Notes: generated by a model not told the origin, from the letters alone. A stretch of DNA of 43,981 nucleotides from Candidatus Onthoplasma sp. (GCA_050874685.1 JBNMLD010000003.1:1-43981), one strand, 5' to 3'; positions 2,824-31,031 are shown, counted from the first letter of the stretch. A program made the numbers and translations.

Positions 2824-2882
2824 AATAAATCAATTTATTTCGCATACTCATAAATTTGGTTTGTTGTATTCACAATAAAAAA
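2824..2882. repeat. dispersed ~60-bp terminator-adjacent repeat, copy A
   Basis: aligns with 6866-6929 (aatttatttcgca..tcataaatttg...tcacaataaaaaa). Confidence 0.65.
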
Positions 2883-6865: not shown

Positions 6866-6929
6866 AATAAACAAATTTATTTCGCAAATGTCATAAATTT
6901 GTTTTTTTTGTTAATCACAATAAAAAAAA
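6866..6929. repeat. dispersed ~60-bp terminator-adjacent repeat, copy B
   Basis: similar to 2824-2882; 12-bp perfect inverted repeat aaacaaatttat/ataaatttgttt; 19-nt exact reverse-complement match to 39391-39409. Confidence 0.65.
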
Positions 6930-11024: not shown

Positions 11025-11092
11025 AAAAACAGACAAAATTAAAAAAAACTGGCTAAAAACAGACAAAATTAAAAAAAATTGGCTAAAAACAG
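11025..11092. repeat. 30-bp tandem direct repeat (2.3 copies) overlapping a terminator
   Basis: aaaaacagacaaaattaaaaaaaa(c/t)tggct at 11025-11054 and 11055-11084, plus a partial copy. Confidence 0.85.
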
Positions 11093-11098
11093 CCAATT

Positions 11099-14213: not shown

Positions 14214-14372
14214 AAAAAAGGCAACCCTTTCGAGTTACCTTTTGCATGAAATTTCTATATTTTATTCTTCGTCATCAATGTCGTCAAAATTAATGAAAAA
14301 GGTAACCCATTACAAGTTACCTTTTGCGTGAAATTTTTAAGTTTTATTCTTCATCGTCAATGTCATCAAATT
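14214..14372 (-). repeat. tandem duplication (82-bp period) of the rpoC 3' end plus terminator
   Basis: both copies encode FDDIDDEE* (stops at 14344 and 14262), each followed by an aaaaggYaac..gttacctttt hairpin. Confidence 0.9.
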
Positions 14373-17300
14373 TCATATTAACATTGTCATTTGTGAAGTT
14401 AAGGCTATCTTCTTTAACTTGCTTTGGAAGAACATTGCGGTATGCTGGAGCACCAGTACCTGCTGGAATCATCTTACCGATGATAATGTTTTCTTTCAAA
14501 CCTTGCAAGTGGTCAACCTTACCTTTCAAAGCAGCTTCTGTCAACACGTTGCTTGATTCTTGGAAGGAAGCAGCAGACAAGAAACTTTCAGTTGTTAAAC
14601 TTGCTTTTGTGATACCTTGAAGTTCACGTTTAGCTGTTGCTGGAACACCACCTTCAGCCAAAGCTTTTTGGTTGGCTTGTTCATAAACACGAATATCAAC
14701 TGTATCGCCTGGCAACAAATCTGTGTCGCCTGCATTTTCAATTTTAACTTTACGAAGCATTTGACGAATGATAATTTCCAAGTGTTTTGCATTGATTGCA
14801 ACAGATTGTGATTTATACACTTCGAGAACTTCGTTAAGCAAATATTCTTGAACGGCTTTAACACCACGAGTACGAAGCACATCTTTAGGGTTCAATGGAC
14901 CTTCTGTAAGTGCTGTACCTGGAGTGATAACTTCGCCTTGTTTAACTTTGATTGTTGAGCCGAATGGAAGAATGTAACTTTCTTCTGTTTGACCTTTTAC
15001 AACAACTTCAAAACGTTTGTCTATTTGATTGATGCTAACTTTACCACCAATATCGCTGATAACAGCAGCACCTTTAGGGTTACGTGCTTCGAAAATTTCT
15101 TCAACACGAGGCAAACCGGAGGTAATATCGTTAGATGCAGTACCACCGCTGTGGAAGGTACGAAGCACCAATTGTGTACCAGGTTCACCAATTGATTGAG
15201 CAGCGATAACACCAACTGCTTCACCAATATGAACAAGGTCATTTGTTGACATGTCACGTCCGTAACATTTTGCACAAACACCTGTTTTTGCTTTACATGT
15301 AAGCAAGCTACGAATATTAACTTTTTCAACACCTGCATTGACAATAACTTTTGCAAGTTCATCGCTGATGTAGCAATCTGCACCAACAATTTCTTTCTTG
15401 GTTTTAGGGTCAATAACTGGTTGTGCTGTGTAACGACCAACGATACGTGCTTCCAATGTTTCAACAACTGTGCCGTTTTGTGTGATTTCTGTAACGTCAA
15501 TACCTTTAACTGGTTCACCAAGATTTGCAAAGCAATCTTCTTCAGTTATAGTTGTATCTTGAGCGATATCAACCAGACGACGTGTCAAGTAACCTGAATC
15601 GGCTGTTTTAAGCGCTGTATCCATCAATTGTTTACGGCTACCACGGGCTGCCATGTAATATTCAAGTGGGTTCAAACCACGGCGGAAGTTTGATTTAACT
15701 GGCACGTCACTAACTGCACCAGATGCAACCGCTGTGTTACCGATAACACCGCAAAGTTGTTTCAAACTGTCTTCGCCACCACGGGCTTTTGATGTAATGA
15801 TAACTTTGATTGAATTGAATTTATCCAAATGTCCAGATGTTACTTTAATTACATCATTAACGGCTTTATCCCAAACTGCCATGTTTCTATTGTATTTGTC
15901 AGCATAACTCATCAAACCTTGCATATACATTGCATCATTTGCATGAACAATTTTATCTGCTTCATCAATGATTTGTTGACGTTCTTCTGCTTCTTGCATA
16001 TCGAAAATTGAAAGTGAAACACTTGATAATGTGCTATATTTATAACCCATATTCTTGATATCGTCAATCATGGTTACAGTTGTGTTTGTGCCATGTTTAC
16101 GATAACATGTTTCAATCAATTTGCCATAAGTACCTTTTTTAACATCGTCTTCAATTTCAAGACGGAGTGCATTTTCTTTTGTATCTCTTGGAACAAATCC
16201 AAGGTCTTGTGGAATAATGCTATTGAAAATAACTTTACCAAGAGTTGTTTCAATACGTCCAGTTACCTTTTCGCCATTGAAATCAACAGTACGGCGCAAA
16301 TTAATTTTTGCTTGAAGGCTTAATTTGCCATTTTCATGAGCAAGTTGTGCTTCGTCTGCACTGGCAAAAGTCATACCCTCGCCCAATGCGCCATCACGCA
16401 CAACTGTAAGATAATAGTTACCCAAAATCATATCTTGGCTTGGCACCATGTTTGGGCTACCATCACTTGGTTTAAGCACGTTGTTAGAAGCCAACAACAA
16501 CATACGTGCTTCAGTCCTTGCTTCCACAGAAAGTGGAACGTGCATACTCATTTGGTCACCATCGAAGTCGGCATTAAAGCCACCGCACGCCAAAGGTGGG
16601 AGACGGATTGCTTTGCCTTCTACAAGGATAGGTTCAAATGCTTGCACTGAAAGTTTGTGAAGAGTTGGCGCACGGTTCAAAAGAACTGGGTGACCTTCAA
16701 CAACTTCTTGCAAAATATCGTAAACGATTGGACGTTCTTGTTCAATCATACGAGTTGCTTTTTTAAGGTTGTTTGTTGCGTTCATTTCCAACAAACGTTT
16801 AATAATAAATGGACGGAACAATTCAAGTGCCATCATTTTTGGCAAACCACATTGATAAATTTTAAGTTCTGGGCCGACAACAATAACTGAACGACCAGAA
16901 TAGTCAACACGTTTACCAAGCAAGTTTTGACGGAAACGACCATGTTTACCCTTCAAACTTGCTGTCAATGATTTCAAATCTCTTTGACGGCTACCTTGAA
17001 CAGCTCTACCACGTTTACCGTTATCAAACAAAGCATCAACAGCTTCTTGTAACATACGTTTTTCGTTACGAACGATGATTTCAGGCGCACCAAGTTCAAT
17101 CAACTTTTTAAGCCTGTTGTTACGGTTGATAACACGGCGATACAAATCGTTCAAGTCACTTGCAGCAAATTTGCCACCATCAATTTGAACCAAAGGACGC
17201 AAATCTGGTGGAATAACTGGAATTACATCAAGAATCATCCAACTTGGCTTGTTGCCAGATTTGATGAATGCTTCAATAACTTCCAATTTCTTTGTTGCTT

Positions 17301-17916
17301 TAAGTTTACGTTGACCTTTTGTTGTGTGCATGATTTCAGTAAGTTCATCACGTTCCTTTTCAAGGTCAATATTATTCAATAATTCTTTAATTGCTTCTGC
17401 ACCCATACCAGCACGGAAACCATTAGGACCATATTTTTCAACAGCTTCACGATATTCTTTATCACGAATAACTTGTTTGTAAGCAAACTCTGTGTTTTTA
17501 GGATCAAGCACAACATAACTTACATAATACAAAACTTCGTCCAAAAGTTTTGGGCTCATATCAAGTGTGATACCGATACGGCTTGGCACACCTTTAAAGA
17601 ACCAAATATGGCTAACTGGACAAGCAAGTTCAATGTGACCCATACGTTCACGACGAACTTTACTTCTTGTTACTTCAACACCGCATTTGTCGCATACAAC
17701 GCCTTTATAGCGCACACGTTTATATTTACCGCAATGACATTCCCAGTCCTTTTTAGGTCCAAAAATGCGTTCGCAGAAAAGACCGTCTTTTTCCGGCTTT
17801 TGTGTACGATAATTGATAGTTTCAGGCTTTGTAACTTCGCCACGAGACCAAGACCTTATCATCTCTGGTGAGGCGATTGCTACTCTGATTGAGTCGAAAT
17901 TGTTTAATTCAAACAT
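14344..17916 (-). CDS. rpoC: DNA-directed RNA polymerase beta' subunit
   Basis: [22 protein letters not shown], zinc-finger motifs, SIGEPGTQL. Confidence 0.99.
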
Positions 17917-18015
17917 TTATCTTTTCTCCTACTATAATTTAATGGTGAAGTTGTTCAGCACAAAGCCAAACAACTTTGCCATCTTCAAATCTTTTTATCT
18001 AAATTGTTTTTGCTT

Positions 18016-18133
18016 TTGACTATTCGTCAAGGTCGTCAAACAGCTCTTCGACAGTATTTTATCTTTCTATAAAATGCTGGACTCGCTTCATTTTTTGACT
18101 TCTTGACTACTCGTCAAGGTCGTCAAACAATTC
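18016..18133 (-). repeat. duplicated rpoB 3' end (87-bp offset)
   Basis: ELFDDLDE-TAG-tcaa at 18103-18133 and again at 18016-18046. Confidence 0.88.
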
Positions 18134-21100
18134 AGACTCGTCAAATGCGGTTGCATTGACATCATTTTCGTAACTCTTTTGAATATCATCAAATTCAAGA
18201 GTGATATCTTCAAGAGCTTGTTTATTAACTGGTTCAACTGCAGTAACTTCTTCGCCTTCTTCACTGACTTCGTTAATTGTAAGTTCGTGATTATCAGCTG
18301 TCAATATCTTAACGTCCAAGCACAAACCTTGCATTTCTTTAACCAAAACTTTAAATGATTCTGGCATACCAGGTTCTGGGATTGGTTCGCCTTTTACAAT
18401 TGCCTCATAGGTCTTGATACGACCTTCAACGTCATCAGATTTAATTGTAAGCATTTCTTGCAACAATCTTGATGCACCGTATGCTTCCAATGCCCAAACT
18501 TCCATTTCACCAAAACGTTGACCACCAAGTTGGCTACGTCCGCCAAGAGGTTGTTGTGTAATAAGTGCATAAGTACCAATGCCACGTGCGTGGATTTTAT
18601 CATCAACCATGTGGTCAAGTTTTAACATATACATTACACCAACTGTTGTTTTGTTTTCAAATGGCAAGCCTGTACGTCCATCGTAAAGTTGTGTTTTGCC
18701 ATCTTCAGGCAAATTATTTTCACGAAGCAAAGCTTTAATATCTTCTTCTGTTGCGCCATCAAATGCTGGTGTTGCAACTTTCCAGTCAAGATGTTTTGCA
18801 GCCCAACCCAAGTGAACTTCCAACAATTGGCTCAAATTCATACGTGATGGGATACCCAATGGGTTAAGCAAAATATCAACTGTTTCGCCATTTGGCATAT
18901 AAGGCATATCACATTCTGGAAGAACAACTGATACAACACCTTTGTTACCATAACGACCTGCAAGTTTATCACCAACTTGAAGCACACGTTTTTGTGCGAT
19001 GTAAACTTTAACACACATATTTACGCCAGCATCAAGTTCATCTTTATTTTTACGTGACAAGATTTCAACACCAACAACAACACCTTCTTCGCCATGTTTA
19101 ACTTTCAAAGATGTGTTTTTAACTTCTTTTGTCTTTTCACCAAAGATTGCTTTCAAAAGTCTTTCTTCTGGTGTTAAGTCTGTTTCGCCTTTTGGTGTTA
19201 CTTTACCAACCAAGATATCGCCTGGGCGAACTTCAGTACCGATACGAACAATACCATTTTCATCCAAATTTTTCAAAGCATCTTCGCCAACACCTGCGAT
19301 ATCACGAGTGATTTCTTCATCGCCAAGTTTTGTTGTACGAGCTTCTGTTTTAACTTGTTGAATACTGATTGATGTATAAGCATCTTCACGAACTATACGT
19401 TGGTTAATCAAAATAGCATCTTCGAAGTTGTAACCTTCCCAGTTCATGAATGCAACTGTCATGTTCTTGCCAAGTGCAACTTCGCCTTTATCTGTTGATG
19501 CACCATCTGCAAGAACATCGCCGGCTTTAACCTTTTCACCTTTCTTAACAATTGGTTTTTGGTTGAAGCATGCTTTTTCGTTTGTACGTTCGAATTTACG
19601 AAGTTTGTGGTTTACAATACTGCCGTCTGCATATTCCATTGTGATGTAGTCTGCAGATACATATTTACAAACACCGTCTTGTTCAGCAAGGATAAGTGCT
19701 CCAGAGTCAACAGCAATTTTGTGTTCAACACCTGTACCAACGATAGGACTATCACATTTGATAAGTGGAACAGCTTGACATTGCATGTTTGAACCCATCA
19801 ATGCACGGTTACCTGGGCTGTGTTCAACAAACGGAATAAGGTTTGCACCAATAGACAAACATTGTTTTGGGCTCAATTCGATTAAGTCAACCATTGAACT
19901 GTCAACACGTTCAGCTTGTCCATTGTAACGGCATTCAATAATGCCAGTTTTTAAAGTTTTATCATCATTCAAGTCAATTGTTGCTGGTGCGATATAGTGT
20001 CCACGTTCTTCATCAGCCATTAAGAATACGATATCGTCAGTAACTTTTCTTGTTTTAGGGTCAATTTTTCTAAATGGAGTTTCAATAAATCCATATTTAT
20101 TTACACGTGCGTACGCAGCGATAGATGTCATCAAACCAATAGGTTGACCTTCTGGTGTTTCAACCAAACAGATACGACCATAATGGCTTGGGTTAATATC
20201 ACGCACTTCAACTGTTGCACGTTCTTTTTTAACACCGCCTGGGCCGAATGAGCTCAAACGACGTTTATGTCTTAAACTTGCAGCTGGGTTGATTTGGTCC
20301 ATCAATGCTGAAAGTTGGCTTGTTGCCATAAATTCTTTAAACACTTTGTTGATATGACGAGCATTTACGATTTGGCTTGGTGTGATATCAGTCAAATCAC
20401 GGCTTTGCAAACTTTCACGCACTTGTGCTTGAAGTTTTGTCATACCACGACGGAATTCATCACGAAGCAATTCGCCACATGTTGCAACACGACGCATTGA
20501 CAAGTTATCAATTTCGTCAGTTTCGCCCAAACCGTCAATCAAGTTCAAATGATAACTGATTGTAGCAACCATATCGTCCAATGTTACTTGGAAATCTTCA
20601 AGTTTATGAGCATTTTCTTTGATTGCTTGTTTTAAACCTTCTTCATCGCCCTTATGTGCTTTCATGATTTCTTGAAGCAAAGGAAGATAAACAAGTTCTG
20701 TTATACCAAATTCTGCTGGGTCAAGTTTTGCATACGCTTTAAGGTCAACACGTTGGTTACCAACAACACGCACAACTTTATCTTCAAGCATAACATCAAC
20801 TGAATTGATACCTGCGTTTTGGATTGCTACTGCTGTATCATGGTCAATAAATTCGCCTTGACTTACAAACAATTTTTTGCCAAGTTTGATATCTGTTGCT
20901 GCAATTTGGTCTGTAATACGGTTTGCAAGTGACAATTTTTTGTTCACTTTGAAACGACCAACTTTTTCAAGATTGTAATGTTGTTGATTGAAGAAACGGT
21001 CGTTAATATATGACAATGTATTTTCAGGGTTTGGAATTTCGCCTGGACGAGTACGTCTGCCAAATTCAATAAGAGCATCTTCTTGTGTGATTTGAGGTTC

Positions 21101-21781
21101 TTTTTCCAAAGTGTTGACAATAAATGGGTGGTGACCATAGATTTCAAGCAATTCTTCGTTTGTGTAGCCAAAGCATTTAAGCAATACACCAGCACTCATT
21201 TTAAACTTACGTTCAACGATAACACGAAGGGTGTCGCCTGTTACTTGTTCTGTTTGAACCCACATACCATAACTTGGTTGAATTGCACCATTATAGTCCA
21301 TACGACCATATTTATTGATTTCGCCACCAAATACAACACCTGGAGATTTAATCAATTGGTTAAGAACAACCCTTTCAACACCATTACAGATAAAGCCTGC
21401 ATCTTTGCTCATGTAAGGAATATCGCCCATGAATACTTCTTGGTCCATGATTTGACCTGTTTCCTTAACAAGCAAACGAACGTTGACTTTAAGTGGAACT
21501 GTGTAGCTCATTTGTTTAACTTTGCATTCGTTCCATGAATACTTTGGTGTGCGGTCGATAGAATAGCCTAAAAAAGACAACTCGGCTTTGTTCGAGTAGT
21601 CTATGATAGGGTTGTATTCGTTCAACACCTCACCAATGCCCTCATTTAAGAATCTTTCATAACTCTCTTTTGCAATGCTTAACAAATCAGGCATAACATA
21701 AGGGACTTCTTTTTTGGCAAAACTCATACGTTCAGCTTTGCCTTGTTTTAGTTTTTTGATGTTCAGTGTGTTTGAATTCAT
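18107..21781 (-). CDS. rpoB: DNA-directed RNA polymerase beta subunit
   Basis: HKRRLS.FGPGG, ETPEG, GYNFEDA, GDKLAGRYGNKG, GGQRFGEMEVWALEAYGA. Confidence 0.99.
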   Translation of the reverse strand: MNSNTLNIKKLKQGKAERMSFAKKEVPYVMPDLLSIAKESYERFLNEGIGEVLNEYNPIIDYSNKAELSFLGYSIDRTPKYSWNECKVKQMSYTVPLKVNVRLLVKETGQIMDQEVFMGDIPYMSKDAGFICNGVERVVLNQLIKSPGVVFGGEINKYGRMDYNGAIQPSYGMWVQTEQVTGDTLRVIVERKFKMSAGVLLKCFGYTNEELLEIYGHHPFIVNTLEKEPQITQEDALIEFGRRTRPGEIPNPENTLSYINDRFFNQQHYNLEKVGRFKVNKKLSLANRITDQIAATDIKLGKKLFVSQGEFIDHDTAVAIQNAGINSVDVMLEDKVVRVVGNQRVDLKAYAKLDPAEFGITELVYLPLLQEIMKAHKGDEEGLKQAIKENAHKLEDFQVTLDDMVATISYHLNLIDGLGETDEIDNLSMRRVATCGELLRDEFRRGMTKLQAQVRESLQSRDLTDITPSQIVNARHINKVFKEFMATSQLSALMDQINPAASLRHKRRLSSFGPGGVKKERATVEVRDINPSHYGRICLVETPEGQPIGLMTSIAAYARVNKYGFIETPFRKIDPKTRKVTDDIVFLMADEERGHYIAPATIDLNDDKTLKTGIIECRYNGQAERVDSSMVDLIELSPKQCLSIGANLIPFVEHSPGNRALMGSNMQCQAVPLIKCDSPIVGTGVEHKIAVDSGALILAEQDGVCKYVSADYITMEYADGSIVNHKLRKFERTNEKACFNQKPIVKKGEKVKAGDVLADGASTDKGEVALGKNMTVAFMNWEGYNFEDAILINQRIVREDAYTSISIQQVKTEARTTKLGDEEITRDIAGVGEDALKNLDENGIVRIGTEVRPGDILVGKVTPKGETDLTPEERLLKAIFGEKTKEVKNTSLKVKHGEEGVVVGVEILSRKNKDELDAGVNMCVKVYIAQKRVLQVGDKLAGRYGNKGVVSVVLPECDMPYMPNGETVDILLNPLGIPSRMNLSQLLEVHLGWAAKHLDWKVATPAFDGATEEDIKALLRENNLPEDGKTQLYDGRTGLPFENKTTVGVMYMLKLDHMVDDKIHARGIGTYALITQQPLGGRSQLGGQRFGEMEVWALEAYGASRLLQEMLTIKSDDVEGRIKTYEAIVKGEPIPEPGMPESFKVLVKEMQGLCLDVKILTADNHELTINEVSEEGEEVTAVEPVNKQALEDITLEFDDIQKSYENDVNATAFDESELFDDLDE

Positions 21782-21875
21782 CCATTAACTCCTTATTCAG
21801 TTGTACGCTCACAAACCTTTATACATAGTATAAATGGGCATAATCCACCCTAGCGAGACTTTTTCATACTGGCTG

Positions 21876-21904
21876 ATTTTAACATAATAAACAAGTTATG
21901 TCAA
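21876..21904 (-). promoter_or_regulatory. sigmaA promoter of rpoBC
   Basis: TTGACA-17-TAAAAT with TG at -15/-14, about 90 nt upstream of the rpoB ATG. Confidence 0.75.
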
Positions 21905-22127
21905 TAGATTTTTAGCAAAATTTGCACAATTTTTAAATATAATTTTTGCCAGTTTCAAACAACTTTAAACATAAAGTTTACAATTTGATTTTGTTAAACA
22001 ATTTGAAAAGCAACAAAAAACCAGTTTGCCAAACAAAACTGAAAACAACTTTGCGTTTCAATCTTTGCCAACTGGTTAATCTGTTTATTATGAATTTTAA
22101 ACAAATCTAACATAAAAATCTTAATAG

Positions 22128-22547
22128 TTAAATTTCACTGTTGTATGAAGAAGCAATCCTTGTGTAATGATTTTCGAAATCCGCCACCATCATTGCAACT
22201 TCTTCCCTGGTTAAAACTTTATCAATTGGCCATCTTTTAGATTTAAAATAGCCAACATTTGACCCATAAGACACAATGAGCATACATTTTGAATAATTTA
22301 CTGAAGCATGTTCATGGTCAACAACCACAGAATAATCGTTATCACACAACTTCTTTGTCAAATTATAAGGAATATTGTTGAAATCATCAACCATCAAGTT
22401 GCCAACTTCATAAATTTCATCTGTTAAAATGTTTTTCACAGCATTGTATTCAGAATTTAAATATAAAGGTTCAAATTTGCCTGTAAGTTTATCAATTCTG
22501 TAATACATACGTTTTAAGCGATATTTCTTATTATTTTCTGTTTGCAC
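22128..22547 (-). CDS. hypothetical protein
   Basis: 139-aa ORF, GTG start with GGGAG SD, own TTGACA/TAATAT promoter. Confidence 0.7.
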   Translation of the reverse strand: MQTENNKKYRLKRMYYRIDKLTGKFEPLYLNSEYNAVKNILTDEIYEVGNLMVDDFNNIPYNLTKKLCDNDYSVVVDHEHASVNYSKCMLIVSYGSNVGYFKSKRWPIDKVLTREEVAMMVADFENHYTRIASSYNSEI

Positions 22548-22627
22548 AATAATCTCCCATAAATGGGCAACCCATTTCTATACCTATATTATCACATCAA
22601 CAAAATTTGTCAACAGATTTCATATTT

Positions 22628-24072
22628 TTAAATCTTTCTATTATTTGACAATGTTGCCACTTTTACATTGAATTTTGTTATATAACCACTAGCATAATAT
22701 TGATCGTTTTTCCTTTCATATTCACCATTTGTTGTGGCAACTTTATAGCTAAATCTAGATTCTTTAATGTCCGCTCTCATGCCATATTTATATGCTGGTT
22801 TAAGCCAGCCGTATGGAGCACATACCTCATTTACATATTTGTCACCCACTGAAGTAATGGAAGAAAGATAAACTCTCGTTGTTGTATGGTATCCTATTGG
22901 CAATGTGCCACTATACATAGTTATTCCACCATGATTCAAATTAGATTTGTATGCACAATTTGACACAGTTTGACCTGTCTCTTTTGCTGATCCTACAATA
23001 TTTGCCATATAGAAAGCAAACACGTTTTACCAGATGCTGTTAATTTGCCAGTAAACAAACACTTATCAATTTTTGCCTCTCCTTTCTCACCACAACAGGC
23101 ACCGACAATACCACCCATTGTTAAACTTCTGCCAGTATTGACAAAATTTGTTGGAAAGTTAAATTCCATACTAACAGCAGAACTGCAATTGTCTACTGTG
23201 TATGTGTTGGTATTTGTTACATTAAATTTACCGACAATACCACCCAACACTCCTATTTCTTGTTTAAAGACCCCATGGACTGAATCAGTTACTGTTGCTG
23301 GAGTCACATTAATAATGCTATTTTTATCAACTAGACATCCACTGATGTTTGTATTAGTTGCATTCCCAACTAGGCACCCAACACCATTGGCATAACTACC
23401 TCTAATAGTCACATTCTCTAGACATAGATTTTTTATTGTTGCGTTTTCCACAAACCCAAAAAAACCACCTGAATTTTCATTTGACATGTTAATATTCACG
23501 TTGCTAATCTTACATCCATTTCCATCAAACGTACCTCTAAAAGGGTGTCCAGCTTCACCAATTGGAGTCCACGAACCGCCTAATGAAAACGATGCTGTTA
23601 ATTTAACTATAGAGTTTTGATAATCATTAGATCCTGATTTTACATTATCTGCAACGGTGGATAAAGAAGAAACTCCACCAACAAGATATGTGCCAGATAC
23701 TGATACATACTCATTTTGATTAATTTGCGTAATCTTTTTATCTATAATTGAAAAATAAATCTTTTCTTTTCCAACAGAATAGACAAGCATTATTGATTTT
23801 GAAGTTGTTTTTATAAGATCACAAATCTTTACATTTGCTTTGGATTTGACTTTTATTTTAGTTAAAAGTTTATCCATGGTATCATCTTCTAATGTGACTT
23901 CTTGCTTAACCGTAATGAAAACATCTCCAGACGCAGTTTTTATTGAGATGGTTGATTGTAATTTAGAAGAAAATATAAGCCCAATAACAACAAAAAACAC
24001 TGCAATAATCAAACAAGAAATGACAATTGCATAAATTGGTTTAAGTTTCAAAATCTTACTGTTTATATCCAT
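22628..24072 (-). pseudogene. GLUG-motif surface protein split by a 1-nt frameshift (ORFs 22993-24072 and 22628-23023)
   Basis: paralog of 12055-13602 (TM, WTPIG, FRGTFDGNG, GGIVG); adding one A to the A4 run at 23025-23028 fuses the ORFs to ..SGKNVFAFYMANIVG.. Confidence 0.7.
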
Positions 24073-24381
24073 ATCTCACAATTATATCCAATTATAAATA
24101 TTGTTGTCAATTTTTCGCTCATACTTATTTTCAAAATTTATTTTAGCGGAAAAAAGGGAGATAAATTCTCCCCTTTTAGTTTCATTAAACCACTTAAAAT
24201 TTTGACTTTTGTAATGTTGTAATTTTAGATAACTAGCAAATTTTGCTTTTCGGTTTAAACAACATGGTGTCATACAAGAAAAGCATCAATACTATTACCT
24301 ATTCATTTTAACCAATTGAGTGTTTTAAGTTTGGGCTTGTTTGGTTTTTGCAAGTACACAAACTTAACAACACATCATCAA

Positions 24382-24588
24382 TTAGCAGCCTTGAGGGCCT
24401 TTATTGCCACAACCACAGCCACAAAGCAACAACAAAATGATTATAAGCAAGCATGGGTCAATACGGCAACCACAATTGCAGAGCAACAAAATAAGGATAA
24501 TTATCCAAGCGAAGTCGCCACATCCGCAACCGTTGTTCATGTTTTCGTTGCAACCACAATCGTTGCCACCAAAGAATTTGTTGAACAT
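24382..24588 (-). CDS. small Cys/Gly-rich hydrophobic protein (possible spore-associated protein)
   Basis: AGGAGG SD; two CGC..IIILLLLC repeats; downstream hairpin at 24325-24366. Confidence 0.75.
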   Translation of the reverse strand: MFNKFFGGNDCGCNENMNNGCGCGDFAWIIILILLLCNCGCRIDPCLLIIILLLLCGCGCGNKGPQGC

Positions 24589-24765
24589 AGTTCCTCCTAA
24601 ATGTGTTTTTATATGTATTTACAAAGAATTTCTTAAGTGCATTAAATTCCTTTGTATAGTACATAGTACGTTGCAGGCTAAAAAAAAGTTACGGAAAAAC
24701 TTAAATCTCCGTAAACTTTTATTATATTGTTGAAGTTAATCAAATATTCTTAAATTTTTGAGATA

Positions 24766-25461
24766 CTAATCTAATTGACTATCTTCTTTTAAATGTTTGG
24801 CATAATTTTGCCATGCTTTTGATTTTTGTTGCTTAACATTCACCCATTTACCGTTCACCAACTTGATAAACGGATTGACATAATTGGTATTATCATCTGG
24901 TTCCCAATAATCGTGCTTACGTTTCAAATAACCGCAAAGCATTTCTTCAGTGAAAAGCCTAAAATGATTTAAATCAGTTGAAACACAAAGTCCATAGGGA
25001 TGATACAAACCTGCACACAAATGTGTGTGTCCAAAAAAGTTGCACATGTTTTTCTTGCCATCTTTTATTTGATGTACCAAATTCACCTTTCTTCCACATG
25101 TTTCAATAATTAGTTCGCGATGCACCTCTTTTATGCCATGTTCAAAACAACAATGCTTAAATTTTTCAAAGTTGTTGTCAAAAAAGTATTTAACAATCCT
25201 ATCTTCGTTGTTACCCATTATAAGGATAATATCCGCATTGATTTTTTTAACTTGTTTTAAACCAATTTCCCATTCATGTGTATCTGGTCCATCACAATCA
25301 AGCAAATCACCCACAACATAAATTGTGTCGCCTTTCTTAGCCGTTTTATTACAGTTGTTAACAATAAATTTATCGTATTCTTTTATGTTCCTAAACGGAC
25401 GATTATCTGTTTTCATTGTAAGCGCATCAGCAAAATGAATATCCGCTGTAAAAAATTTCAT
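24766..25461 (-). CDS. calcineurin-like metallophosphoesterase
   Basis: ADIHF, VGD, GNNED, GHTH; start MKFF with AAAGGGG SD. Confidence 0.85.
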   Translation of the reverse strand: MKFFTADIHFADALTMKTDNRPFRNIKEYDKFIVNNCNKTAKKGDTIYVVGDLLDCDGPDTHEWEIGLKQVKKINADIILIMGNNEDRIVKYFFDNNFEKFKHCCFEHGIKEVHRELIIETCGRKVNLVHQIKDGKKNMCNFFGHTHLCAGLYHPYGLCVSTDLNHFRLFTEEMLCGYLKRKHDYWEPDDNTNYVNPFIKLVNGKWVNVKQQKSKAWQNYAKHLKEDSQLD

Positions 25462-25484
25462 TTGTACCCCTTTCACGCAATCTA

Positions 25485-26564
25485 CTAATAACTGAACGAT
25501 TGCAATTTCTCAACTATCATTTGCTTTAATTGCACAATATTTTTGCCAGACTTTGCCCCAATATAACATGTATCATAATGATAACGCTTTAAATTCTGCA
25601 CATCTGCATTTGTTATTTTATCTATTTTGTTGTAAACCAAAATAATGCGATTTGGGTCAATTTCAAGACGTTTAAATTCACGTTCCACAACCTCAATTTG
25701 GTCATAACAATGTGGGTCACTTGCATCAACAACCATTAAAAGGACATTCGCATCAAGTGTTTCTTCCAAGGTTGCAGAAAATGCGTACATAAGTTCATGT
25801 GGCAAATTTGAAACAAAGCCTACAGTATCAATCAAAACATATTCTGTGCCGTTATCCCAAACCTTTTTTGAAAGCACATCAAGTGTGGCAAAAAGCCTAT
25901 CATCAGCATAAGTGCCTGCCTTTGAAATAGCATTCATCAATGTCGATTTGCCTGCGTTTGTATAGCCTACCAAAGCAACACTTTTCATACGAGACAAACG
26001 TTGTTTACGTTGTGTTTGACGATTTTTTTGAATATCCTTAATTTCTTTTTCAAGCCTGATGATATCTTCTTGAATCTTGCGTTTGCTTAAATCTTTAAGT
26101 TTTTCGCCAGAGCCTTTGCCTGCTTGACGTTCTTGGTTAAGTTCAAGGCAACTCAACCTTGGCAAACTATATTTAAGTTGTGCCAGTTCAACTTGCAATT
26201 TGCCCTCGCCTGATTTTGCCCTGCCAGCAAAGATATCCAAAATCAGCATTGTGCGGTCAATGGTTTTAACATCAAAAATTTCACTTAAATTGCGCAATTG
26301 ACTGCCTGTGAGCGGGCAATCAAGGATAACAATTGTTGCACCCAAATCTTTGATTTCATCACGGATTTCTTCAGCCTTACCGATACCAAAATAAGTGCGT
26401 GCGTTTAGTTCTTTTGGTTGAAAAATATTGATTTTAACAATTTCATATAGAGCACTTTCAGTCAATTGCTCTAACTCTTTTGCCCTATGCTCCACATTTT
26501 CAACATCAACATAAGGGCACACCAAGTATGCCTTTTCTTTTATAACTTCATTATTAACAAACAT
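25485..26564 (-). CDS. hflX: ribosome-splitting GTPase HflX (possibly HflXr-like)
   Basis: DRTMLILDIFA, EGKLQVELAQLKY, GYTNAGKST, LFATLD, DTVGF, NKID; start MFVN with AAAGGAG SD. Confidence 0.92.
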   Translation of the reverse strand: MFVNNEVIKEKAYLVCPYVDVENVEHRAKELEQLTESALYEIVKINIFQPKELNARTYFGIGKAEEIRDEIKDLGATIVILDCPLTGSQLRNLSEIFDVKTIDRTMLILDIFAGRAKSGEGKLQVELAQLKYSLPRLSCLELNQERQAGKGSGEKLKDLSKRKIQEDIIRLEKEIKDIQKNRQTQRKQRLSRMKSVALVGYTNAGKSTLMNAISKAGTYADDRLFATLDVLSKKVWDNGTEYVLIDTVGFVSNLPHELMYAFSATLEETLDANVLLMVVDASDPHCYDQIEVVEREFKRLEIDPNRIILVYNKIDKITNADVQNLKRYHYDTCYIGAKSGKNIVQLKQMIVEKLQSFSY

Positions 26565-26747
26565 AAATTCTCCTTTAAACATAAAATTTAGGCACAATGC
26601 GGATAAAAAACCGCCACCGTTTATACTCCAAAAAACAATAAGTTCACAATTAAAATCTGCCTAAAATTTTAATTAGAGTTTAAAGATTTATGCTCATTTT
26701 TAACATCTCCTAAATTTTATTTTAACTTTTAAACCGCATATTGTCAA
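26562..26747 (-). promoter_or_regulatory. hflX promoter and putative translational attenuator with uORF MSINL (26680-26697)
   Basis: TTGACA-17-TAAAAT; AGGAG SD before the uORF; uORF sequence complementary to the hflX SD and AUG. Confidence 0.7.
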
Positions 26748-26892
26748 TAAATTATTATTTAGAAATGTGATTTTTGATTTTATTTATGCTGAAATTTGGC
26801 TGTTATTTCGCACATTCTCCTCGCAAAAGGCAGGCAAAAAAGCAAATACCAACAAAAAATGCACTGTTGAAAGTGCATTTTATATATAAGGT

Positions 26893-27333
26893 TTATTGTT
26901 GAACACTGTTTTCTTTGATAAATTCAACTGTTTGAATCAAAACATCTTTTGTGTCAATCATTGATTGAATCTTTGCCAAAATCATGTCTTCTTCTTCAAT
27001 TTTTCTTTTATTCAACCAGTTAAAAATCAAATGTCTCTTTTTTGTTTTTGCAACGATTGTAAGGGCATTTTTTTCAAGCAATTCATCATCTTTCAATTTT
27101 TGCATCAACTTGCCAACATGTGTAAGTTTTGCAAGCACATCGCTCCAATTTTCACTGCCCAAAGTCATATATAATTTGTAATAAATGTCGTTCATGATGC
27201 CTACACGTTGATTTTTTGATTGCATGCGTGTGATTTCATTCATTGTGTCGTAAATTTTGCCAACATATTCACAAACAACCGCTTCCCTTGTTGTCATTGC
27301 TGGTATGATTGGCATACTATAATATTTTTCCAT
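26893..27333 (-). CDS. hypothetical helical protein
   Basis: 146-aa ORF, GAGG SD, TTGACA/TGgTATAAT promoter, terminator hairpin at ~26855-26881. Confidence 0.7.
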   Translation of the reverse strand: MEKYYSMPIIPAMTTREAVVCEYVGKIYDTMNEITRMQSKNQRVGIMNDIYYKLYMTLGSENWSDVLAKLTHVGKLMQKLKDDELLEKNALTIVAKTKKRHLIFNWLNKRKIEEEDMILAKIQSMIDTKDVLIQTVEFIKENSVQQ

Positions 27334-27437
27334 TTAAAACCTCAACTTTCTTTCATTATACCATAAAGGTAAATTTTGTCAATAGTCAATTTTTTAAAAT
27401 TGTTGCAAAAAATGTAATAATTTGTTAATATGTACGC

Positions 27438-28250
27438 ATGCGTATATGTAACTTGGCTAGCGGAAGCAGTGGCAACTGCACATATATTGAAGGAGATTCT
27501 GCCAGAATACTGATAGATAACGGCAAACCTTTTTCATATATTTTTAATGCGTTGAATGAACTTAACATTGCACCAGAAACCATTGATGCCATACTCATCA
27601 CTCACGAGCATAGCGACCATATTAAAGGCGTTGAAAAATTTGCACGCACTTTTAATACAAAAATTTTCGCTCACAGCAATGTTAAAGAAGTTTTGTTAAA
27701 TCAAATTCATATAGACCCAAACAATTTTGTTTTTTTTGACACTGATTTTGAAATTGGAGATTTACACATTCAACCTTTCCCATTGCCTCATGATAGCAAA
27801 TTCTGTGTTGGATATCGTGTAAATCAGGAAGATGCTGTTGTAACAGTTTGCACCGACTTGGGAGAATTTTCGGCTGAAACATTTGAAATTGTAAAATCAA
27901 GCGCATTGGTCTATCTTGAAGCAAATTATGACCCCGAAATGCTGATGTCTTATCCAGGCTATCCCCCATTTTTGAAGCGCAGAATAAGTGGTGGACATGG
28001 GCATTTAAGCAACCTTCAATGCGCAAAAGCAATTGAAAAACTTGTAAGCACTGGCACAAGGCTGGTTGTGTTAAGTCACATCAGTGAACACAGCAACACA
28101 ACAAATCTTGCAGTGGGAACAATCGCAAACTATTTGCAAAGCAAAAACATTGTTCCAAATCGTGATGTCCGCCTAGACATTGCTCACCACGAACAACGTG
28201 GAACTATATTTAGAATCACACCTACAAGTCAAAAAAATAATATAGATTAG
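27438..28250 (+). CDS. MBL-fold metallo-hydrolase, YycJ/WalJ/VicX family
   Basis: LASGSSGN, THEHSDH, PHD, TDLG, LEANYD, GHLSN, LSHISE. Confidence 0.88.
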   Translation: MRICNLASGSSGNCTYIEGDSARILIDNGKPFSYIFNALNELNIAPETIDAILITHEHSDHIKGVEKFARTFNTKIFAHSNVKEVLLNQIHIDPNNFVFFDTDFEIGDLHIQPFPLPHDSKFCVGYRVNQEDAVVTVCTDLGEFSAETFEIVKSSALVYLEANYDPEMLMSYPGYPPFLKRRISGGHGHLSNLQCAKAIEKLVSTGTRLVVLSHISEHSNTTNLAVGTIANYLQSKNIVPNRDVRLDIAHHEQRGTIFRITPTSQKNNID

Positions 28251-28276
28251 TTTTAAACCGGTCTATATTATTTTTT
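28231..28276. terminator. bidirectional terminator
   Basis: aaaaaataatataga...tctatattatttttt between convergent genes. Confidence 0.75.
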
Positions 28277-28284
28277 GTTTGTGA

Positions 28285-29604
28285 TTATTTTAATTGTTTG
28301 ATATCCATGACAGTATCATGAGGAATTGGCTTCCATTCCACACGTTTAAATAACGCAACGTATGATGTCCATTTACCTATAATATCAAATAGTGGGAATA
28401 AAATCATGTGGAAAACTGTTTTGAAAAATGGCAACTTACCAATTCTTTTTCTATATACAATCAAAACACAGGTTTGAACAACCAAATCTGATAGTAATGT
28501 CATTCCTAGTCCTGAAAGCCAACCAGTTAAAAACCCTAACCATACATTGCCAGCACTGCCAACAATGATGCCTATTATAAACATGCAAGTACATTTGATA
28601 ATTCTTCTAATAGCACCTTCAATTGAGAATGGAAAATTCAGCCAAAAGCAATCATAAGTCGTCCAAAATGTAATTTTGGGGTCAACTAAATTTTTTAGCA
28701 GTTTGGGGCAATTTTCCACAGTTGATTGCAAATGACCTTTAGACCAACGCAATCTTTGGCGCAATGCAACTTTTAATTTGTATGGTTGCTCATCATAAAA
28801 AATTGCATCATCGCAATATGTAATCCTATAATTTTGTATAACTGCATCAGTACAAAAACTTCTGTCTTCTGTAAGTGTTGTATAATTCCAACCATTTTTA
28901 ACCAATTCGTTTGCAAATAAAAAGCCTGTGCCTTGGATTCTGCATGCCTGATTCAACAAGCCTTTAGCACGATTTTCAGTCAAACAGGTGCGCATCCAGT
29001 GCATTGCATAACTAAATGAAATCCAGTTTTGATTCATGTTTTTAGAATGTCTGAAAGACGTGATTATTTTATTTCCAGCATCAAAAGCTTCATTCATTTT
29101 AGTGATATAGTTTGGATTTAAAACGTTATCAGCATCAAAAATAAAATACCCTTCAAAGGCTTCTACCCCTTTATCTCCTGTTAGTTCTTCATCGTCTTTG
29201 ATTTGTTCAAATAAATATTTCAGTGCAAAACCTTTTGTTCGCTCATCTGGATTTTTGTGTTCATATACTTTAACACACATATCTTGATGATTTTTAGCAA
29301 ACTCTCTCACTATTTCAGCGGTTGAGTCAGTACAATTATCCGCAACAACCAAAACTGAGATTTTATCTTTAGGGTAATCTTGGTTATAAACACTATCCAA
29401 AAGGTTTTTTATAACTTTTTCTTCGTTACGTGCCGCAACACATATAGCATAATTATGATTTTCTTTAGCAGTTGGAAATTTTTTAGCAGGGAACAAACCA
29501 ATTATTTTATAAATTGTTTTATAAAAAGTTAAGTACCCTATCACTGTACCTATGACAGAGCAAATAATGATTATCACATTTAAAACGTTTTCAAAAGTAG
29601 TCAT
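28285..29604 (-). CDS. glycosyltransferase family 2, processive/membrane type
   Basis: AARNEE, ADNCTD, FDADN, TED, QRLRW motifs with flanking TMs. Confidence 0.9.
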   Translation of the reverse strand: MTTFENVLNVIIIICSVIGTVIGYLTFYKTIYKIIGLFPAKKFPTAKENHNYAICVAARNEEKVIKNLLDSVYNQDYPKDKISVLVVADNCTDSTAEIVREFAKNHQDMCVKVYEHKNPDERTKGFALKYLFEQIKDDEELTGDKGVEAFEGYFIFDADNVLNPNYITKMNEAFDAGNKIITSFRHSKNMNQNWISFSYAMHWMRTCLTENRAKGLLNQACRIQGTGFLFANELVKNGWNYTTLTEDRSFCTDAVIQNYRITYCDDAIFYDEQPYKLKVALRQRLRWSKGHLQSTVENCPKLLKNLVDPKITFWTTYDCFWLNFPFSIEGAIRRIIKCTCMFIIGIIVGSAGNVWLGFLTGWLSGLGMTLLSDLVVQTCVLIVYRKRIGKLPFFKTVFHMILFPLFDIIGKWTSYVALFKRVEWKPIPHDTVMDIKQLK

Positions 29605-29798
29605 GATAATAGAATTGCAAATTAGACAATTAAAGTCAAATAAAATGAAAAAAATTATAATTTTGATAGATTAAAAGACATTAAAAATATGCGGAGTTAT
29701 ATTCCGCATATCATTTTTGTATTGGCTATTTTTAAATCATATTATTTTACTCTTGCATCTTTACCCAAAAACAACGAAAATATCAAATGCAATTTTTG

Positions 29799-30425
29799 TT
29801 ATTGATTGGGTTTTGTTCGATTTTTGCCATTTCCAATAAGGCTGAAATCAATACGATAATATCCTTGTTCCATGTCACATAACGGACATTTTTTTGGCGC
29901 TTGTTTGCCTTCAATGATTGTTCCACACTCATCACATTTAAAGCAAGCTTCTCCACAATTGCATTTATACAAACAATTACATTTCAACCCTTCCGCAAGT
30001 TTTTCTAATGTGCGTTGATGAGTTTTTTCAACCTTGGCAACCATATCAAACAATTCTGCCACATCTTTAAAGCCTTCGTCTCTTGCAATATCTGCAAAAG
30101 TTGGATAAATTGTCTCTGCGCTCATTTCTTCGTTGTGAGATTCTAATTTTAATGTTTCACACAAATCTGCGCCTTGTTTGAACGGATACCCTGCTTTAAT
30201 TTCAATATTTTGTGTATCCTGACCACCATGCTCATTAATCTTGTTAAAAAATTGTTGTGCGTGCGCCATTTCATTATGGGCAATGGTTCGCACCAAATTG
30301 CTTAAATACTCATATCCTTGTTGTTGCGCCATTTTTGCCAAAAACTGATAACGTGCACCCTCCATACATTCACTGGCAAATGAACGTGCCAAATTTTCTT
30401 TTGTTTTGCTTTGTTGAAAATCCAT
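29799..30425 (-). CDS. rubrerythrin-family protein
   Basis: SKTKENL, NEMAHA, VEKTH, C-terminal CDECG..CPLC rubredoxin domain; start MDFQ with GGAGG SD. Confidence 0.88.
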   Translation of the reverse strand: MDFQQSKTKENLARSFASECMEGARYQFLAKMAQQQGYEYLSNLVRTIAHNEMAHAQQFFNKINEHGGQDTQNIEIKAGYPFKQGADLCETLKLESHNEEMSAETIYPTFADIARDEGFKDVAELFDMVAKVEKTHQRTLEKLAEGLKCNCLYKCNCGEACFKCDECGTIIEGKQAPKKCPLCDMEQGYYRIDFSLIGNGKNRTKPNQ

Positions 30426-30549
30426 ACAACCCTCCAATTTCTATTTTTGCCAAGTGTCGCAAGTTAAAACAAAATAACAAATTTTTAATGCTAAAATTTT
30501 TAAAAGTTGTTTTTTGCAAAATATTTTTTAAAAAATTTGTAAAAATTTA

Positions 30550-30578
30550 TTGACAAACTTTTTTTTAATTGTTAATAT
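30550..30578 (+). promoter_or_regulatory. sigmaA promoter of the tRNA operon
   Basis: TTGACA-17-TAATAT with TG at -15/-14 and an A/T-rich UP region. Confidence 0.75.
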
Positions 30579-30615
30579 AAACTTGCATTTGTTGTGAAAT
30601 GCACCTAAAAATTTT

Positions 30616-30692
30616 GGGGGATTAGCTCAGTTGGCTAGAGCACTTGCCTTGCAAGCAAGGGGTCATCGGTTCGAATCCGATATTCTCCACCA
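30616..30692 (+). tRNA. tRNA-Ala(TGC)
   Basis: cloverleaf, G3:U70 pair, anticodon TGC, GTTCGAATC T-loop, encoded CCA. Confidence 0.97.
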
Positions 30693-30783
30693 AATGTTAT
30701 AGGAAGATGGCGAACATATTATTGTTCGCCAAATTCATAGGACATTAATGGTTGAAGCCTGTTTAAGCAATTTATTGCAAACA

Positions 30784-30799
30784 GATATTCTCCACCAAA
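30784..30799 (+). repeat. 16-bp duplicate of the tRNA-Ala 3' end (att-like)
   Basis: gatattctccaccaaa identical to 30679-30694. Confidence 0.85.
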
Positions 30800-30954
30800 A
30801 ATATTTTGAGATGTGAATTTCAAAGTTTACCTCCCTTAACATAAGGGGTTTACAAAGGGGAAACAAAGTTGCCACTTTGTAGAGGAGCAAACGCCTAACA
30901 AGCGGACGTTTGCGACAACTTGAAGCAAACTCGCAAAAAGGCGAATTGCGACGA

Positions 30955-31031
30955 AGAGATGTAGCTCAGCAGGTTAGAGCACCACCCTGATAAGGTGGGG
31001 GTCGGTGGTTCGAGTCCACTCATCTCTACCA
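30955..31031 (+). tRNA. tRNA-Ile(GAT)
   Basis: AGAGATG/CATCTCT acceptor stem, CCACC-CTGATAA-GGTGG anticodon arm, CCA. Confidence 0.97.

Follow-up and report, generated by a model that had tools for sequence, protein, structure and literature searches.

The window analysed here is a 43,981-nucleotide stretch of a draft genome of Candidatus Onthoplasma sp. (GCA_050874685.1, JBNMLD010000003.1:1-43981); the genome as a whole, referred to as G000, comprises 924,524 bases in 81 contigs and is 93.75% complete. Between positions 14,214 and 30,799 the window contains rpoC and rpoB, both identified with NCBIfam, and a tRNA-Ala(TGC) gene, identified with ARAGORN and Rfam. Each of the three is followed by a displaced copy of its own 3' end. 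The places of these gene-end repeats and their periods of 82, 87 and 105 nt, reported in a first-pass annotation of the sequence, were confirmed. The pattern is real and general in this lineage, and it does not correspond to one integrated element.

The rpoB gene, encoding the beta subunit of RNA polymerase (1224 residues), lies on the minus strand at 18107-21781. Its working end and an imperfect inverted copy of its last codons, located right after the stop codon (around 18091-18107), make up the segment 18090-18129 (minus strand). This is followed on the same strand by a hairpin with a CAG...CTG stem (18052-18079) and by a spare end reading LFDDLDE* (18003-18042). The 40 nt at 18090-18129 and 18003-18042 are 83% identical, with a period of 87. 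The hairpin adds to those after rpoC and tRNA-Ala, which the first-pass annotation had already recognized correctly. Among the loci fetched from the best 30 of 57 matching genomes, 8 carry the rpoB unit. Arrays were found as well: G061 has three copies, the contig of G042 stops within its second unit, and X13, one of the public runs that we compared as assembled contigs (X3, X6, X8, X9, X10 and X13), has one extra 87-nt unit. A contig from another sample, X3, covers both rpoB copies with 0 differences. The spare copy mostly follows the codon spelling of its own gene and is decayed in G005 and G058; the E-L codons at its start, which had been taken as synonymous in the first-pass annotation, are not kept in the sister G058, where stop codons stand instead. 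A model of the insert, R2, gave 9 matches in 8 of the 64 draft genomes used for all genus-wide profile searches; these 8 are all its training genomes, and the matches lie at rpoB ends only. The hairpin is conserved through compensatory changes in 8 genomes (89% paired, 7 cells changed on both sides, 0 of 500 shuffles), with a structure derived from these same sequences. Finally, an 8-nt inverted piece lies at most 30 nt from the stop codon in 6 of the 30 loci, every one of them unit-bearing, and in G000 and G058, where this piece has decayed, an inverted copy of the last rpoB codons follows the stop codon instead.

The rpoC gene, encoding the beta' subunit (1190 residues), occupies 14344-17916 on the minus strand, as do all features of its repeat. 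Unit 1 (14296-14376) comprises the last codons, the stop codon, a trailer and a terminator-like hairpin (14297-14325), and an 8-nt inverted copy of the duplication-junction sequence lies 2-3 nt before this hairpin (14329-14336). Unit 2 (14214-14294) repeats this arrangement with the spare end FDDIDDEE*, a trailer and a second terminator-like hairpin (14216-14243). The two units are 80% identical over 81 nt with a period of 82. Since 81 of the 82 nt of each period are duplicated, terminator included, this is a whole tandem copy, and the insert described after rpoC in the first-pass annotation does not exist. The spare end differs from its own working end by 3 synonymous changes and from the working end of G060 by 1 coding difference, few sites being available for this comparison. 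In the 33 rpoC loci compared, the 8-nt inverted motif occurs in 5 trailers, all from the closest clade. Two copies were found in G000 and G059, a decayed copy in G005, and a single end in the remaining printed loci, including G057, G058 and G060; contigs from runs X6, X8, X9, X10 and X13 also join across the rpoC unit, and none of the listed public-run pieces carries both rpoC copies. By eye, the nucleotides separating the hairpin from the spare end match, in G000, G059 and G005, the register expected from fold-back copying.

Other variation was seen around these two genes. Downstream of rpoC in G002 (locus L005), three terminator hairpins stand in tandem with different loops, and the final 8 nt of rpoC are repeated ahead of each one. 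The gap between rpoB and rpoC contains a small variable open reading frame (ORF) of about 60-75 codons in L033, L035, L036, L037, L045, L052, L053 and L058, which is absent from the window. Runs X8 and X10 join across the 1521 nt at window positions 22628-24149, a variable gene block adjoining rpoB.

The tRNA-Ala gene (30616-30692, plus strand) is followed on the same strand by an 84-nt insert (30695-30778) and by a spare 3' end that includes CCA (30779-30799). The insert region forms a long hairpin (about 30693-30746) and a short one (30759-30784), whose right arm extends into the spare end. The repeated segments, 30674-30694 and 30779-30799, are 90% identical over 21 nt (19/21, with 16/16 at the 3' end) and have a period of 105. 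This insert is present in G057, G058 and G059, while G060 has the exact empty allele. Across the 30 tRNA-Ala loci compared, 16 contain a downstream copy of the gene end, with several unrelated inserts. Downstream of tRNA-Ala, loci L105, L108, L110, L113 and L115 also show partial 5' copies of tRNA-Ile ahead of the intact tRNA-Ile gene.

All three regions of the window fold more stably than their shuffled counterparts (z of -3.5 for rpoC, -3.4 for rpoB and -5.1 for tRNA-Ala), and their inserts are mutually unrelated and locus-specific. Blastn searches with the three inserts found no second locus in G000 or in any fetched locus, the insert model R1 of a dispersed repeat described below (family E) matched none of them, and a scan of the window with Rfam at gathering thresholds matched only its two tRNAs. 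We therefore rejected a single shared element behind the three inserts: they have nothing in common in sequence, and the rpoC unit contains no foreign DNA at all. The shrunken attL..attR element proposed in the first-pass annotation is not supported, on the same grounds, and gene 5' ends proved to be affected as well.

To determine how widespread the pattern is, we scanned 834 ORFs of G000, called with a simple caller and skipping those with less than 100 nt downstream, for a stop-anchored copy of their last 24 nt within 400 nt downstream at a score of at least 21/24. Eight ORFs passed this threshold. None scored 19-20, and shuffled end/downstream pairs, drawn in five rounds, reached 18 at most, which places the genome-wide frequency above background. 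About one gene in a hundred of this streamlined genome thus carries a spare end. Besides rpoB and rpoC, pheS, a spoVT-like gene, a CobW-type GTPase, an ABC transporter and a minD-like gene are among the protein cases. Scanning without the stop anchor brought in clpX, 3 of 34 tRNA genes with a 15/16 copy of their 3' end, and mirror duplications at the 5' ends of four tRNAs, dnaK and aspS. The anatomy recurs: a gene end is followed by a trailer, which often holds an inverted piece of the junction sequence, then by a hairpin and by the gene end again. Across more than a dozen genes, insert sizes are concentrated at about 80-200 bp. Filled, empty, arrayed and decayed states all occur among relatives, and the filled and empty alleles that the first-pass annotation had suggested looking for were found both in these relatives and in run contigs. 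A plain forward-inverted-forward arrangement of the gene end is found in G014 for rpoC and in G076, G021, G007 and G008 for tRNA-Ala; such copies are clear in G014, G076, G021 and G005 and partial at rpoB and rpoC, and that of the window tRNA-Ala is not significant.

The spare ends of protein genes mostly preserve the peptide. In the eight protein cases of G000, 17 of 22 coding differences are synonymous and 5 are not, against an expectation for a free copy of 18% (uniform) or 35% (transitions; p 5e-5; against 50%, p 0.008), and the synonymous bias anticipated by the first-pass annotation is therefore present. Copies at ppdK show 41 synonymous and 20 nonsynonymous differences over 15 copies, decayed and foreign ones included. 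At clpX there are 6 of each, because its tails differ. In G000 (C16:531-758, L396) the working and spare C-termini of clpX carry different tails: the peptide tail of the spare end is that of the sole working end of the sister G058, and the working tail resembles those of G005 and G057. Since the spare end of one species is the working end of its sister, swapping does happen. The simplest reading, as it appears from these sequences, is that an incoming unit displaced the resident end, and a displaced resident end is also suggested at rpoC. Of the suggestion that minimal mobilisable elements swap 3' ends, the swapping holds at clpX and possibly at rpoC, but the window inserts do not belong to family E, which is the existing candidate for such an element.

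Family E is a 104-bp dispersed palindromic repeat with two hairpins and fixed ends. A core common to four G000 inserts outside the window served as the starting point, and the model R1 was built from 14 copies. It yielded 713 matches in 62 of the 64 genus genomes, 34 matches in 28 of 80 genome-collection loci (all Clostridia by title) and 16 matches in 15 of 37 viral loci; none was found in plasmids, and phages gave one weak match. No terminal inverted repeats were seen by eye in the family alignment, and an Rfam search with one E locus returned no credible family. The window holds one copy (30854-30955, plus strand; 46.2 bits, E-value 3.5e-8), which begins 55 nt beyond the span of the first-pass annotation and lies against base 1 of tRNA-Ile(GAT) (30955-31031, plus strand; ARAGORN and Rfam). 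In 18 of the 30 best E loci, the DNA following E is matched by a copy upstream, the duplicated segment beginning exactly at E's end, and the other 12 show no flanking duplication. In 15 of these 18 loci, an exact inverted run of at least 7 nt to the junction lies within 22 nt before E, compared with 6 of 290 mismatched control pairs; several of the real loci are orthologous and not independent. The orientation of E is tied to the junction and not to transcription, as both 5' and 3' cases reveal. Among the 30 ppdK genomes compared, 12 have a copy, which begins at an identical codon boundary. An inverted run of 9-10 nt is present in 9 of these 12 and tracks five synonymous spellings, and 16 of the 18 genomes without a copy have runs of at most 6 (the exceptions being G064 and G079). 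In G050, a simple-hairpin unit and an E unit with differing tails are stacked at ppdK, and in G005 only the last 8-9 nt of E remain before the copy.

Apart from these duplications, E often abuts a tRNA gene end precisely, at base 1 or, on the opposite strand, at the CCA end, and no long duplication accompanies it there; besides the window copy, this was seen in L272, L253, L265, L302 and L146. In the viral loci L202, L213, L221 and L222, E is flanked by a phage head-completion gene and an HK97-gp10-like gene, and its end gives the likely start codon.

We did not find an enzyme tied to the repeats, and the association with a recombinase in trans that the first-pass annotation had envisaged did not emerge for integrases, Y1 transposases or reverse transcriptases. 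G000 has no match to Y1 transposases or reverse transcriptases, and the 88 ORFs flanking E include no transposase, HUH protein or reverse transcriptase, only one serine recombinase and two phage HNH proteins; DDE families were not searched genome-wide. Y1 genes, IS200-like, occur in 8 of the 64 genus genomes. None of those over the family cut-off has E beside it, and the sole E match is in L168, where the Y1 is below cut-off. The sole GIY-YIG match in G000 lies within a 621-residue frame, and no E adjoins the small GIY-YIG genes of relatives. A longer, ORF-containing form of E was not recognized in the 37 viral loci by a crude pattern test. Tyrosine-recombinase matches in G000 amount to one long and two short ones, and both ComEC and MutS are present. 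SbcCD cleaves hairpins, and its nuclease subunit SbcD did not exceed the cut-off in any of the 64 genus genomes. As a separate observation, loci L170-L175, from several genus genomes, contain genes for GIY-YIG proteins of about 100 residues flanked by inverted hairpin repeats of their own, unrelated to E.

The reading we favour, with about as much confidence as doubt, is a local, hairpin-primed duplication of gene ends, followed by turnover and swapping through ordinary recombination without a dedicated integrase. A hairpin would stall or self-prime DNA synthesis, leading to fold-back or slippage, and the short inverted copy of the junction would serve as homology for a restart upstream, in the gene end. 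Units would then expand, collapse and decay, which are states that we observed. Finally, an incoming unit would give the gene a new working end and the resident end would become the spare, as apparently occurred at clpX and possibly at rpoC. Units may be carried between lineages by recombination that uses the gene body and the short second copy as anchors; homology-facilitated illegitimate recombination is reportedly a described route. Because only events that leave the gene whole survive, duplications would accumulate at its 3' and 5' ends. In favour of this reading stand the pure tandem unit at rpoC with its fold-back register, the lack of a second locus for the three inserts, the forward-inverted-forward ends, the range of allele states, the synonymous bias, the clpX tails, the mirror cases at 5' ends, the presence of ComEC and the failure of SbcD to exceed the cut-off. 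Family E may rely on this geometry too, using its own enzyme.

Several observations weigh against this reading. Fold-back priming leaves family E unexplained, as the constant end of E is not complementary to its variable target, and the reading does not account for where the hairpin DNA at rpoB and tRNA-Ala came from. The inverted piece is missing in 2 of the 8 protein cases of G000 (C7 and the minD-like C51). At the window tRNA-Ala it gives no signal (background fraction 0.35), and just 5 of 16 filled tRNA-Ala loci fall below 0.05. Exact inverted-run tests of filled against empty loci gave p values of 0.54 for tRNA-Ala, 0.09 for rpoB and 0.03 for rpoC, the latter with just 2 filled loci, and the duplex energies of the inverted pieces compared with other genes gave borderline p values of 0.07 for rpoB and 0.05 for rpoC. 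The compared genomes are kin, so the tests overstate. Furthermore, an old clpX duplication with differential loss could give the same pattern as displacement, and MutS would hinder recombination between species.

A less probable, though still arguable, alternative is that all cases, the three of the window included, are protein-less mini-elements carrying a substitute gene end together with a guide that base-pairs. A trans-acting enzyme (single-strand, HUH-like or Xer-like) might nick the target in the middle of the guide duplex and insert the element before the resident end, a scheme we put forward tentatively; it is conceivable, if doubtful, that E is the intact form and that the simple hairpins represent alternative cores or products of decay. 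The fixed ends and abundance of E in the genus, the excess of inverted runs at its duplicated loci over the controls, the ppdK run that follows five synonymous spellings, the orientation fixed to the junction, and the stack in G050 with the E remnant in G005 all argue for this alternative. The three window inserts, however, have no E match, 12 of the top 30 E loci lack a duplication, E does not lie beside Y1 genes over cut-off or small GIY-YIG genes, the E-flanking ORFs include no transposase, HUH protein or reverse transcriptase, and G000 has no Y1 or reverse-transcriptase match; template-switch repair could likewise keep guide and target matched. In its widest form, to which we give limited credence, gut Clostridia might harbour protein-less elements of about 100 bp that home to essential-gene ends by a re-writable guide and a programmable single-strand recombinase, shuttling C-termini (clpX, ppdK, rpoC) between species, with the window repeats as simplified or decayed members. 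Should the E guide really direct insertion, the enzyme still to be found would amount to a new recombinase programmable by sequence.

Retention of the units as functional RNA structures acting in processing, stability or termination, with an incidental origin, is unlikely. The covariation of the rpoB hairpin (within a structure derived from the same sequences), the terminator-like rpoC hairpin and the transcription and processing of some E. coli tRNA-linked repeats (PMC8144298) point in this direction, but each unit is missing in most relatives, structure alone leaves the peptide-keeping spare copy unexplained, and the 5'-end cases are antisense or upstream. We consider it very unlikely that the repeats are scars of integrative elements, that is, cis-mobilisable remnants deleted down to attL..attR. 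Direct repeats of which one restores the gene end are present, a displaced resident end would yield synonymous differences, and tyrosine-recombinase matches exist in G000. On the other hand, no DNA lies between the rpoC repeats, and within the first few hundred bases after rpoB (30 loci), rpoC (33), tRNA-Ala (30) and ppdK (30) in these draft genomes there is no insert of the size of an island or integrase gene. The clustering of insert sizes over more than a dozen genes also speaks against deletion scars, of which neither inverted pieces nor tandem units are expected. Assembly artefacts or chance repeats, the former a refuting outcome named in the first-pass annotation, are hardly credible: G000 is an 81-contig draft and no read piece spans both rpoC copies, but the copies are just 80-90% identical, independent genomes share the same junctions, the X3 contig covers both rpoB copies, and shuffled pairs stop at 18/24. 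On anatomy we also dropped a diversity-generating retroelement (the changes are not A-specific), ribosome bypass (the stop codon lies before the insert) and a self-splicing intron (too short).

Several known systems resemble the pattern in part: E. coli tRNA-linked repeats in layout, template-switch triplications in likely origin, and inserts with long target duplications or cis-mobilisable elements in outcome. The E. coli tRNA-linked repeats (TLRs; rrA/B/F) are described as gene-less units, present in 1-5 copies per locus and of largely unknown function (PMC8144298). The last 18-19 bp of the short TLR unit repeat the 3' end of the upstream RNA gene exactly, much as in our tRNA-Ala case; TLRs as described there concern tRNA and rRNA genes only, whereas here protein genes and 5' ends are also involved, synonymous bias is seen and ends are displaced. 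The window gave no Rfam match to a TLR family. Partial tRNA copies have otherwise been ascribed to integration and CRISPR (PMC9897764). Hairpins and small inverted triplications are described as arising by template switching (PMC8794818, PMC13334657); with our pattern they share the forward-inverted-forward pieces, which here are clear in some relatives only, the hairpins that replication errors create and keep, and the scale of about 150 bp. In those accounts the triplications concern eukaryotes or RNA stems, while our cases have an extra junction hairpin, a mostly decayed middle copy and alleles that move between lineages. Integrative elements are reported to insert at the 3' ends, less often the 5' ends, of genes that stay intact and to decay to cis-mobilisable elements (CIMEs) (PMC5704250). 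Integrative and mobilisable elements and CIMEs share with our cases a gene end restored by one repeat and tandem accretion at a single site (PMC5704250); unlike them, we found no integrase or larger form, many genes are involved, and rpoC has no cargo. IS1630 reportedly targets inverted repeats and duplicates 19-26 bp, and inserts with long variable target duplications are known (PMC2853133, PMC3317919). Such inserts are gene-bearing, and IS1630 possesses a transposase and terminal inverted repeats, whereas our units showed neither an ORF nor terminal inverted repeats. GTAG/CGTC repetitive extragenic palindromic (REP) sequences are, like E, dispersed and palindromic, with a CGTC start on one strand (PMC3733652), but E is 104 bp long with two hairpins and no adjoining Y1 (RAYT-like) gene. 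A multi-copy tagged hairpin, as in REPs, describes E only and not the three window inserts. The terms 'Clostridi' and 'Firmicutes' do not occur in the main text of the REP paper (PMC3733652). For CIMEs, IS1630-type inserts and REP/RAYT systems, one defining feature each is thus lacking here. In the literature searched, comprising few subscription journals and no supplements, we found no account of family E or of the gene-end pattern at rpoB, rpoC or protein genes.

Spare ends provide a route to altering the tails of essential proteins without breaking them, and the C-terminus of clpX was apparently exchanged in this way. A duplicated tRNA or gene end alone is consequently no proof of an integrated island. 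The origin of tRNA-linked repeats also becomes testable on protein genes, where synonymous sites can date the events.

Other repeats were noted in the same genome. Another intergenic repeat, about 62 nt long and present in multiple copies, occurs at window positions 2824-2882 and 6866-6929 and at about 20 more places in G000. One copy falls within a duplication of 245 nt, which sits at the end of a gene that we take, from its reading, to be rplL-like. Finally, the window contains a tandem repeat at 11025-11096, with 2.4 copies of a 30-nt unit that are 95% identical.

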